DNA from: an uncultured Gammaproteobacteria bacterium
GTDB taxonomy: Bacteria; Patescibacteriota; Patescibacteriia; Magasanikbacterales; UBA922
Length of the DNA stretch: 28,819 nucleotides
NCBI GenBank assembly: GCA_964401185.1
Contig: CAYNXQ010000001.1
Coordinates: forward strand, 1 to 28,819
Direction of reading: 5' to 3'
Shown: piece by piece, positions 1 through 2,448 of the stretch
How the letters are laid out: each line of letters opens with the position of its first letter
Position numbering within the stretch: position 1 is the first letter of the stretch
Notes under the pieces: generated by a model
Seen by the model: the letters and a program-made list of their open reading frames with translations, nothing else
Databases searched by the model: none
What the model was told of the DNA's origin: nothing
Translations under genes and position numbers: made by a program

Positions 1-162
1 GCCGCCGCCGGGCGGAAAGCCCACGATGAGGCTGATCGGGCGGTCGGGGTATGTCGTCGAGATGATATGGGGCATCTGACCATGCTGGTCGGGTCTGCGG
101 AATTCTTCTGTCGGCCGCAGATGATTGGAGCGCGGGGCGTTGGTCTCTTCGAGTTGTCGCAT
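1..162 (-). CDS. 5' part of a tripartite tricarboxylate transporter substrate-binding (TctC/Bug family)-like protein, runs off the window start
   Basis: Manual translation from ATG at 162: MRQLEETNAPRSNHLRPTEEFRRPDQHGQMPHIISTTYPDRPISLIVGFPPGGG. YPDRPISLIVGFPPGGG matches the Bug/TctC N-terminal motif YPxRPIxLIVPFPPGG. Strong SD (GAGGAGGAG) upstream. Not in the ORF track because it is truncated. Confidence 0.7.
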   Translation of the reverse strand, partial: MRQLEETNAPRSNHLRPTEEFRRPDQHGQMPHIISTTYPDRPISLIVGFPPGGG

Positions 163-218
163 GTTCTCCTCCTCTTTGATGCTGTCTGCTTGTGCAGTGT
201 TGAAAAGAACGGTTGGGT

Positions 219-247
219 ACTATAGCAGGGAACTCGGATTTTGTCAA
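219..247 (-). promoter_or_regulatory. sigma70 promoter for the TctC-like gene
   Basis: Minus strand TTGACA (247-242)-N17-TATAGT (224-219) with extended -10 TGn. Confidence 0.75.
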
Positions 248-250
248 TAC

Positions 251-343
251 AAAAAAGACCCTGGTCGTGTTCGGCTTTGGCAGAGGGAGAGAAGGAGGGG
301 CCTCTCCAACACCTTGGTCGAACACGATCAGAGTCCTTTGATT
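251..343 (-). ncRNA. candidate small non-coding RNA (rod-like hairpin, anti-SD sequence in apical loop)
   Basis: 17-position basal stem (335-319 with 273-257; one GU pair, one mismatch) followed by U6. Inner stem GGAGAG/CUCUCC with loop GCCCCUCCUU. Preceded by its own promoter. No ATG on this strand. Confidence 0.5.
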
Positions 344-349
344 TTTCTC

Positions 350-378
350 ACTCTAGCAGATTGGGACGATTTTGTCAA
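350..378 (-). promoter_or_regulatory. sigma70 promoter for the candidate sRNA
   Basis: Minus strand TTGACA (378-373)-N17-TAGAGT (355-350) with TGn. Shares TTGACAAAATC...CTGCTA(T/G)AGT with the promoter at 219-247. Confidence 0.7.
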
Positions 379-395
379 GTCTGACGATGCGTAGA

Positions 396-430
396 GAAAA
401 TCAAACCTCCCGACTCAATCGGGAGGTTTG
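396..430 (-). terminator. intrinsic terminator of infC-rpmI-rplT
   Basis: CAAACCTCCCGA-N5-TCGGGAGGTTTG hairpin followed by AUUUU on the minus strand, 10 nt after the rplT stop. Confidence 0.75.
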
Positions 431-440
431 TATATTTTGT

Positions 441-788
441 TTAGGCTTTGGCCTTGGCCACCAGAGTGGCGAAGATGTTGGGCTGTTCGGCAGCGATTTT
501 GGCCAGGACCTTGCGGTCGAGGAGGATGCCGTGCTTCTTTAGTCCTCCCATGAACTGACTGTAGCTCATGCCAGCGTCGCGGACGGCAGCGTTGATTCGG
601 ACCTGCCAGAGACCACGCATCGTGCGCTTTTTCACGCGGCGATCGCGATAGGCATGGGCGCCCGCTTTCAGCTGGGCAGTTTTGGCTAGTTTCAAAAGAT
701 TTTTTCGGCCAGCTTCGTATCCCTTCACGCGTTTCAAGATTTTTCGGCGGCGTTTGAGATGCGAGAGACCACGTTTGACTCGGGACAT
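441..788 (-). CDS. rplT: 50S ribosomal protein L20
   Basis: MSRVKRG...AYRDRRVKKRTMRGLWQVRINAA...YSQFM...LDRKVLA; infC-rpmI-rplT synteny. Confidence 0.98.
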   Translation of the reverse strand: MSRVKRGLSHLKRRRKILKRVKGYEAGRKNLLKLAKTAQLKAGAHAYRDRRVKKRTMRGLWQVRINAAVRDAGMSYSQFMGGLKKHGILLDRKVLAKIAAEQPNIFATLVAKAKA

Positions 789-797
789 AAAGGAATC

Positions 798-1004
798 TTA
801 TGCGTAGGGGAGTGAACGGAGGATCGTCTGTTTCACCGTTGTATCCATGATGGCGTCGGATCGCTTGTTGCGCTTCACCTTGCCAGTTTCGCGGGAATTA
901 AAATGATCCTGTCCATCCGTGCGTTTCAGGACCGTGATGCCTTTTTTGGAGCGTTTGACAACAAATCGTTTGGCAACCGCTTTGTGGGTTTTGAGTTTCG
1001 GCAT
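798..1004 (-). CDS. rpmI: 50S ribosomal protein L35
   Basis: MPKLKTHKAVAKRF motif; lies between infC and rplT. Confidence 0.96.
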   Translation of the reverse strand: MPKLKTHKAVAKRFVVKRSKKGITVLKRTDGQDHFNSRETGKVKRNKRSDAIMDTTVKQTILRSLPYA

Positions 1005-1074
1005 AAAAGAAAGGTTCGTTGATGGACAGTACTGTACCAGATCGCCAACTCCCTGTCAAGAGATGGGCTGTGGC

Positions 1075-1623
1075 TTACTTTTTGGCAACAATGGCGGTGA
1101 CTTTGTTGGCTTGCTTGGTGATTTCCTGGTCGATGCGCAGCGGCATGGTGGCCTCGATCATGCCCATGAATTTGCGAATCACATCAAAAGCGATGGCGGG
1201 TCGGCCGTGTTCGCGACCGCGCAGGATAATTTCAATTTTTACCTTGTCGCCACGAGAAAGAAATTTCTCGGCTTGTTCGCGGCGAATGTCAAGATCGTGC
1301 TCGCCGATGCGGACCGAGAGGCGGATGCCCTTGGTGTCGCTCGTGTGCGCATTGCTTTTTTGCTTCTTGGCTTCTTTTTCTTTTTGATATTTGAAATGAG
1401 AAAAGCCAATCATCTGGGTGACTGGCGGTGTTCCTTTGGGATTGATTTCAACCAGGTCCATTTCTTGAGCGCGGGCCATGGCAATCGCTGCGGCTGTGGT
1501 CATGACGCCAAGATTGGCGCCCTCGCGGTCAATCACGCGCACTTCGGGGACAACAATCTGCTCGTTCACATTGAAGTGCGGGATAATGGGTTTGTCTGGT
1601 CGGCGTTTGCGAGAGATACGCAT
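1075..1623 (-). CDS. infC: translation initiation factor IF-3
   Basis: NEQI..PEVRVID..G.NLGVM, DLVEINP...PPV, K.IRLS.RIGEHDL, GDKVKI...RGRE motifs. Confidence 0.97.
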   Translation of the reverse strand: MRISRKRRPDKPIIPHFNVNEQIVVPEVRVIDREGANLGVMTTAAAIAMARAQEMDLVEINPKGTPPVTQMIGFSHFKYQKEKEAKKQKSNAHTSDTKGIRLSVRIGEHDLDIRREQAEKFLSRGDKVKIEIILRGREHGRPAIAFDVIRKFMGMIEATMPLRIDQEITKQANKVTAIVAKK

Positions 1624-1638
1624 AATATTGGTAAGGAG

Positions 1639-1667
1639 AGTATGCCATGGTTTTCTCTGACTGTCAA
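1639..1667 (-). promoter_or_regulatory. sigma70 promoter of infC operon (very short leader, no SD)
   Basis: Minus strand TTGACA (1667-1662)-N17-CATACT (1644-1639) with TGn. Confidence 0.7.
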
Positions 1668-1930
1668 GATAAAGAAAAGCCGCCTGGGCGAACCAGATGT
1701 TCTTTTTTTATTTTTGGCCAACGTTTTATTTCCGCTTCTCGTTTGGCCGCATCACTACGACTGTCAAAAGATTCGGAATAAATAATTTTGATTGGCAGAC
1801 GACTGCGGGTGTATTTGCTTCCTTTGCCTGCATTATGTTTTTTCTCTCGCGCATCTAGATCGTCGGTCATACCAGTGTACAAGCTATGGTCACTGCAGCG
1901 AGCCAGATAAGTAAAATATTTTTTTGACAT
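1664..1930 (-). CDS. GIY-YIG nuclease superfamily protein (UPF0213/YhbQ-like)
   Basis: YFTYLARCSDHSLYTGMT.D...R...HN.GKGSKYTRSRLP......E.F.SRS.A.KREAEIK signature. Confidence 0.9.
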   Translation of the reverse strand: MSKKYFTYLARCSDHSLYTGMTDDLDAREKKHNAGKGSKYTRSRLPIKIIYSESFDSRSDAAKREAEIKRWPKIKKEHLVRPGGFSLS

Positions 1931-2051: not shown

Positions 2052-2054
2052 GTG

Positions 2055-2448
2055 TGGAGATGCCGGGAATTGAACCCGGGTCTAGAGCGGGTTGTCACAA
2101 TGCTCAACATGCGTTGCCTTTTTGGATAATCAAGAAATCAGAAAAAGGCAAAAGTTTTCTTGATGCGTCTGTGCATGACTTCGCGCGAGACTGACAGACC
2201 AAGCGCTCGCACTACGCTCGATAGTTGACACCGCAGTCCTGTTATCGAGTATTACAGGCGCGATGGTAGTTGCACTTAAGCGACTACGGGTGCGAATGAA
2301 GGAACGGCAAATGCTTTCGCAATGGCGTTCTTCACTCGACTAAGTACGTTTGCACGTAGCTTTTGCTCCGCAGTTTTACGAGGGTGTAGAGCGACCTCGA
2401 CATGCACACTGGTGACAACAAATCCGTCTATCGAATCCTGTCATCCCC
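2055..2448 (-). ncRNA. ssrA: tmRNA (one-piece, ~394 nt; CCA not encoded)
   Basis: 5' GGGGAUG pairs with 3' CAUCUCC-A including the G3.U Ala identity pair. 5' GGAUUCGA, T-arm CCGGG-UUCAAUU-CCCGG, internal tag ORF ending in UAA at 2278-2276. Directly downstream of smpB. Confidence 0.95.

Follow-up and report, generated by a model that had tools for sequence, protein, structure and literature searches.

The RNA gene and its surroundings

The 28,819-nt stretch of DNA analysed here (the window) comes from a groundwater sample and carries, on its minus strand, infC, rpmI and rplT, followed by a terminator, a promoter and a small RNA gene (Table 1). A reading of the letters alone (the original prediction) had described this RNA as a stand-alone, non-coding structured RNA gene with an anti-Shine-Dalgarno (anti-SD) loop. 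That description holds: the gene has its own promoter, a rod fold, a U6 tract and conserved homologues. The promoter that had been proposed, TTGACA-N17-TAGAGT with a TG, was called at 378-350 (-), and the transcript (343-248) is indeed free of AUG.

Table 1. Features of the RNA gene and its neighbours, in window coordinates
Feature	Position	Strand	Details
Sigma-70-type promoter of the RNA	350-378	-	-35 TTGACA at 378-373, 17-nt spacer with TG, -10 TAGAGT at 355-350
The RNA itself, ~92-96 nt	248-343	-	start placed near 343 from the -10 element; 3' end within the U-tract
Apical hairpin	286-307	-	stem GGAGAG 307-302 / CUCUCC 291-286 around the 10-nt loop 301-292
Invariant loop motif CCCUCCUU	292-299	-	includes CCUCCUU, the core of the 16S 3' tail
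Basal and middle stem	253-339	-	5' arm 339-319, 3' arm 273-253
U6 tract	251-256	-	completes the intrinsic terminator; T-run kept in homologues
Separate intrinsic terminator of rplT	402-430	-	upstream of the RNA promoter; 13-bp stem, then T-rich tail
infC, rpmI and rplT	441-1623	-	infC 1623-1075 (NCBIfam TIGR00168), rpmI 1004-798 (TIGR00001), rplT 788-441 (TIGR01032)
Next promoter, not part of the RNA	219-247	-	TTGACA-N17-TATAGT; serves the truncated ORF starting at 162

Upstream of infC, a small stand-alone ORF with a GIY-YIG nuclease domain (1664-1930 (-); PF01541, E 2e-16) lies between that gene and a tmRNA gene (2052-2448 (-); RF00023, 108.7 bits), and two relatives (L013 and L044) have a similar small ORF after the RNA. 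Contigs of one soil metatranscriptome cover close relatives of the tmRNA and nothing over the RNA, which is no evidence of silence.

The RNA promoter had also been taken for a duplicate of the promoter at 219-247. This idea was not upheld: both match a genome-wide consensus, TTGACAAA...TGcTAnnnT, and the two look alike because each fits this general pattern. The genome contains 156 TTGACA-N17-TAnnnT sites, 85 of them with the TG, and TTGACAAAATC occurs 7 times.

The truncated ORF served by that second promoter (1-162) is cut by the contig end and has AGAGGAGGAGAA as its SD. It was previously called "TctC-like", and searches of Pfam and NCBIfam gave no match for it. A pairing of UUCUCUCCCUCU with AGAGGAGGAGAA at 11 of 12 positions had been proposed. 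The arithmetic is correct, but a special pairing with the neighbouring gene is not supported, because UUCUCUCCCUCU lies in the 3' arm of the apical stem, which is paired and covaries freely, and because the neighbour is not conserved. In one DNA run, the contig ends at window 170, and another contig matches bases 1-47 (6 mismatches); the junction near window 170 is not spanned by that one run.

An Rfam 15 search of the window matched only the tmRNA and gave nothing on the RNA. When window 100-500 was scanned with all 4227 models of Rfam 15 (cmscan, E <=10), only noise was returned (MIR844, sraA, Phe_leader and others), far under the gathering scores. No known family, then, matches the RNA at the gathering threshold or at E <=10, and a search of the literature on small RNAs of the Candidate Phyla Radiation (CPR) or Magasanikbacteria found no description of it.

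Fold and covariation

In ViennaRNA, the RNA forms one rod with a folding energy of -42.0 kcal/mol, compared with -24.5 +/- 3.8 in 200 shuffles (z -4.61; 0/200 as good). This reproduces the rod that had been claimed, with its basal stem, its U6 and its GGAGAG/CUCUCC apical stem. The rod is stable, comprises 40 bp and holds out a 10-nt loop, GCCCCUCCUU, at window 301-292, on an apical stem that can be written GGAGAG(G)/(U)CUCUCC.

Covariation was assessed in an independent MAFFT alignment of 33 homologues from across the order. Here, 95.3% of cells are paired, versus 74% in column shuffles and at most 50% with the partners slid, and 27 of 29 base pairs have undergone compensatory changes, a level that 0/500 shuffles reach. 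The apical stem has such changes across the order in all seven of its pairs, as do 20 of the 22 pairs of the basal and middle stem. Within the latter, one pair (G19-C77) is invariant, and the segment GUGUUYGG/CCGRACAC, which has a U-G wobble, is conserved. In alignment A4, about 100 G-U cells are compatible with the minus strand only and, together with the promoters and the U-tract, they fix the transcribed strand. A type I antitoxin or small-protein gene was considered and rejected, since the transcript lacks an AUG and the substitutions are compensatory for RNA pairs, not codon-like.

Distribution and genomic neighbourhood

A BLAST search against relatives found five homologues with 74-85% identity, and a covariance model was built from these. 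By covariance model, 97/107 genomes of the RNA's own family (53/56 genera) carry it, as do 122/151 of those sampled in the order Ca. Magasanikbacteria (class ABY1). Both counts are lower bounds, because the model missed a diverged copy that inspection found after rplT in family f8. On the RNA itself, covariance model R1 scores 89.3 bits (E 2.7e-19, 248-341 (-)), and 43.6 bits on the opposite strand. A broader model added seven looser relatives in other ABY1 families, equal in length and with the same GUUUGG/CCRAAC stem segment. Neither the Patescibacteria genomes sampled outside ABY1 nor viral contigs gave a match. The homologue search in CPR genomes suggested with the original prediction has thus yielded a large family, with compensatory changes in nearly all of its pairs.

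The RNA is almost always single-copy; where a genome gives a second match, it comes from the same rod read on its opposite strand. A few genomes have tandem head-to-tail arrays of 2-3 copies, e.g., G004 (L058:1501-1774) and likewise G011, G016 and G108-G111. In the one array that was read (L058 of G004), a U-tract is present on the last copy alone, which means that such an array would yield one multi-rod transcript.

The RNA lies directly after infC-rpmI-rplT, in the same order and on the same strand, in 46/49 homologous loci. It is preceded at a fixed distance by its own perfect TTGACA-N16-18-TAnnnT promoter in 34 of the 46 syntenic loci. The gap from the rplT stop to the RNA is <=39 nt in 7-10 loci, and the RNA is therefore read through from rplT in these, forming the 3' end of the operon. 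The genes downstream differ between genomes and are often on the opposite strand, so the RNA is not a leader, and this variation also rules out the downstream gene as a cis target. The class-level relatives in other ABY1 families are stand-alone genes away from rplT. Judging by translations only, at L119-L121 the RNA is ~0.5 kb upstream of a sigma-70-family-like ORF, and at L120-L122 a small excisionase-like HTH ORF adjoins it.

The invariant loop

CCCUCCUU is the sole block of contiguous invariant columns (8) in the 33 order-wide homologues, where three other, isolated positions are also invariant. It stays constant even where both stems are wholly different in sequence (families f6 and f7), and it is unpaired with a mean probability of 0.99 in 35 homologues. 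More distant ABY1 relatives have loops such as CUCCUCCUC, which leaves CCUCCU, the anti-SD core hexamer, as the only element common to all 42 sequences. The canonical anti-SD core that had been noticed in the loop is therefore a property of the whole family. CCUCCUU is common to CCCUCCUU and the canonical 16S tail, GGAUCACCUCCUUUCU, which was confirmed in four relatives, the 16S of the RNA's own genome being unassembled. An anti-SD-like motif in an exposed hairpin loop, conserved while the stems covary, characterises the anti-SD-loop base-pairing sRNAs (a functional kind, not a homology family), and the RNA has precisely this arrangement. It is a real, uncatalogued and strongly supported structured RNA family of the anti-SD-loop kind. 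We infer that it is also abundant.

With the neighbouring GGAGG SD, the duplex energy is -12.1 kcal/mol for the loop alone and -13.0 kcal/mol for the 16S tail. The invariant C 5' of CCUCC mismatches both the commonest SD flank, AAGGAGGA, and the SD of rpsU, GGAGGUGA; these two fit the 16S as well as or better than they fit the loop.

A search of the RNA's own genome (G000) for other anti-SD-loop hairpins found none comparable. In relatives, perfect hairpins of the form CCCCUCCUU-N3-4-AAGGAGGGG are scattered, some directly before a start codon (L146:1490-1530 and 1930-1970; L156:1490-1530; L139, L145 and L157 around 1480-1520). They have the same sequence as the RNA loop and are either cis SD/anti-SD hairpins or a repeat family.

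The translational setting

The RNA's own genome is poor in SDs: 580 of 858 crude genes are without even GGAG or GAGG at any candidate start. An SD is present at infC in 1/44 loci, at rpmI in 0/45 and at rplT in 0/46. For the window, the original prediction had reserved SDs for GC-rich genes and denied them to housekeeping genes. The second part agrees with these counts, but SD-led genes are hardly GC-richer genome-wide (0.506 vs 0.500). Nowhere in the order is AAGGAGG over-represented relative to its reversed control. The ratio of the two is ~0.6-0.7 in families with the RNA and ~0.8-0.9 in two without it, a comparison confounded by relatedness and composition.

Nevertheless, a start codon follows at a distance of 3-10 nt for 50 of the 112 AAGGAGG sites in the RNA's own genome, which thus has a defined set of SD-led genes. 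Genes with a very strong SD follow the pattern AAGGAGG, ~5 nt, ATG, and 25 of the 30 tested are without a Pfam family; among those that have one are an Era-like GTPase, a NUDIX protein, a DHH protein and a DUF218 protein. Examples are C76:820-1737, C102:373-2519 and C134:674-1466, and several are clustered on short contigs. As for a phage link of the small SD-led genes, a PHROG match was found in only 1 of 10.

The ribosomal-protein gene rpsU, which encodes bS21, has the extended SD GGAGGUGA in 28/30 loci of the order (G000:C59:2440-2721 (L205/L206) and L207-L235). Against TIGR00030, the bS21 homologue has a full-length match whose 21.9 bits are under the cut-off, and 143/151 genomes of the order have a bS21 homologue, among them members of families without a detected RNA. 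The rpsU SD is often preceded by UCAC(C), which is able to pair with GGUGA as a small hairpin. Taken together, SD-poor genomes, a canonical 16S tail and an SD-led rpsU look like the genomic signature of the "SD-blind ribosome" of Bacteroidia. In that group, bS21, bS18 and bS6 sequester the anti-SD, and rpsU is autoregulated via its SD (PMC7797042, PMC9976891).

Possible functions of the RNA

The explanation we favour, tentatively and by analogy with known sRNAs, is that the RNA acts in trans, with its loop pairing with GGAGG-type SDs and thereby competing with the 30S subunit for SD-led mRNAs; we think it plausible but stop a little short of calling it probable. The RNA would be a housekeeping-type small RNA, transcribed separately from its own promoter, whose rod presents the ribosome's anti-SD core in a 10-nt loop. 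By base-pairing with GGAGG-type SDs, this loop would be a competitor of 30S subunits for SD-led mRNAs, which are a minority here, core genes starting without an SD, and such pairing would be expected to repress translation. The tandem arrays of 2-3 copies are as expected for a dosage-dependent competitor.

Several results weigh against pairing with SDs, among them the mismatches of the invariant C described above. For steric reasons, a 10-nt loop that is closed can form only ~6-7 bp, and families that have the RNA do not differ clearly in AAGGAGG density from those that lack it. No conserved specific target of the loop was found either. The 10-mer complement of the loop, AAGGAGGGGG, is no commoner than its reversed control in the 107 family genomes once the RNA gene is discounted, and the genes behind AAGGAGGGGG sites are unrelated and differ between genomes. 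The 16S regions and tmRNA contain no complement of the loop.

The loop could instead be aimed at a protein. As a mimic of the 16S 3' tail, it would bind a protein that holds this tail, with bS21 as the best candidate, perhaps together with bS18 and bS6, and would so set the number of ribosomes with a free anti-SD, with no mRNA pairing involved. We consider this main rival unlikely. In its favour, the lineage has the Bacteroidia signature (SD-poor genomes, canonical anti-SD, rpsU with GGAGGUGA), bS21 binds an anti-SD-containing element of OLE RNA in vitro (PMC12054373), and two features of the RNA, its 8-nt invariance and a conserved stem segment with G-U, are what protein sites typically show. 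However, the RNA has a C at the position of 16S A1534, which in F. johnsoniae stacks on Tyr54 of bS21; the occluding site in Bacteroidia is mainly bS18 and bS6 on the assembled platform; and in OLE it is a duplex, not a loop, that bS21 recognises. The near-universal presence of bS21 in the order leaves no co-occurrence signal with the RNA. In its fuller version, the proposal strikes us as slightly less likely still: on an otherwise "SD-blind" ribosome, the RNA would compete for the proteins that hide the anti-SD (bS21, with bS18 and bS6), whether these are free or bound to the 30S platform, and so set the fraction of SD-reading ribosomes. If it were true, the messages concerned would be rpsU and ~50 accessory genes of the RNA's own genome, and the RNA would act in CPR bacteria as a switch that specialises ribosomes. 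Era was set aside as the decoyed protein, since the loop has no GAUCA, which we take Era to need.

Two further explanations were considered. In one, the RNA is mainly a cis element of the infC-rpmI-rplT transcript, i.e., a terminator, a 3'-end stabiliser or an L20 operator, and the loop is incidental to any regulation in trans. Its position directly after rplT on the same strand (46/49 copies), the read-through from rplT in the 7-10 loci with short gaps, and the U-tract at the end of the rod all suit such an element, but we judge it improbable. The RNA has its own perfect promoter in 34/46 loci, and rplT in the window has a separate terminator; a terminator requires neither 92 nt nor an invariant loop; infC, rpmI and rplT are without SDs for the loop to pair with; and the ABY1 relatives outside the order stand alone, away from rplT. 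On these grounds (own promoter, separate rplT terminator, invariant loop), a plain intrinsic terminator of rplT was rejected. An L20 leader or operator was likewise rejected, as the Rfam L20 leader is unmatched and the RNA is downstream of rplT, not upstream of infC or rpmI. In the other explanation, the RNA would be a divergent signal recognition particle (SRP) RNA or another known housekeeping RNA. A single-copy rod of ~90 nt with a strong promoter would fit, as would the failure to detect an SRP RNA (RF00169, RF01854) in the RNA's own genome or in 40 relatives. Against this, no Ffh M domain or SRP54-type GTPase was detected, a six-frame search gave no DTAGR motif, the loop is without the features of SRP domain IV, the RNA is confined to part of ABY1, and no Rfam model matches it at E <=10 beyond noise, which brings this explanation close to refutation.

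The SRP searches also gave an observation in its own right: SRP RNA, Ffh M domain, SRP54-type GTPase and DTAGR all went undetected in a genome that is 98.9% complete. With PF00448, 101 genomes from the class and 5 further Patescibacteria gave P-loop fragments only. In genomes other than the RNA's own, this may reflect a limit of the search, and nothing in the literature searched dealt with missing SRP components.

Significance

Riboregulation in the CPR is, to our knowledge, almost unexplored, and we know of no riboregulator that has been studied in the lineage of this RNA. The RNA is a very well supported structured-RNA family of the CPR, near-universal in its order and with 27/29 covarying pairs. 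Its invariant 8-nt loop, which contains the sequence by which the ribosome docks mRNAs, is a simple, testable handle. An abundant anti-SD mimic could control a small SD-dependent regulon, or it could report on how ribosomes of this type manage their anti-SD. Either outcome would bear on an open question: why SD-poor lineages keep an anti-SD at all.

Comparison with known systems

The Bacteroidia system is comparable in its setting. We know of no RNA with an anti-SD loop from that group. What it shares with the lineage of the RNA is a genomic signature, in which SDs are rare, the anti-SD is canonical and the SD of rpsU is extended (PMC9976891, PMC7797042). P6 of OLE RNA, the element bound by bS21, is comparable in its sequence: it has exactly the same 16S anti-SD hexamer, CCUCCU, and is linked to the SD-anti-SD machinery (PMC12054373). 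However, the anti-SD of OLE is paired to an SD-like strand within a 600-nt ribonucleoprotein, whereas in our RNA of 92 nt it is single-stranded in a loop.

Two groups of sRNAs are closer in architecture. The C-rich-loop sRNAs of Firmicutes, such as RsaE/RoxS and the RNAIII hairpins with UCCC, use unpaired loops to pair with G-rich SDs through short complementarity. They have shorter motifs, multiple hairpins and SD-rich hosts, and the RNA has no Rfam match to them.

The cuckoo/CcsR sRNAs of Alphaproteobacteria (RSs0680a-d, SmelC397 and others) have anti-SD-like hairpin loops, CCUCCUCCC, as their only conserved sequence, while their stems change by compensatory mutation; they have a conserved neighbourhood and repeated modules, and depending on the lineage they either derive from 3' UTRs or have a promoter of their own (PMC4615179, PMC8034643). 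The RNA is not a member of this family: there is no sequence or model similarity (Rfam), it lacks their 2-4 CCUCCUCCC hairpins, and its host belongs to another phylum (CPR). Where cuckoo/CcsR sRNAs string together 2-4 short adjacent hairpins, the RNA has one long rod of 40 bp per unit with the loop CCCUCCUU, and where their neighbour is a DUF1127 gene in Alphaproteobacteria, that of the RNA is infC-rpmI-rplT in Ca. Magasanikbacteria, an SD-poor host. What they have in common is an anti-SD-like loop, covarying stems, a conserved neighbourhood and repeated modules, and the cuckoo/CcsR sRNAs are the closest functional analogues of the RNA.
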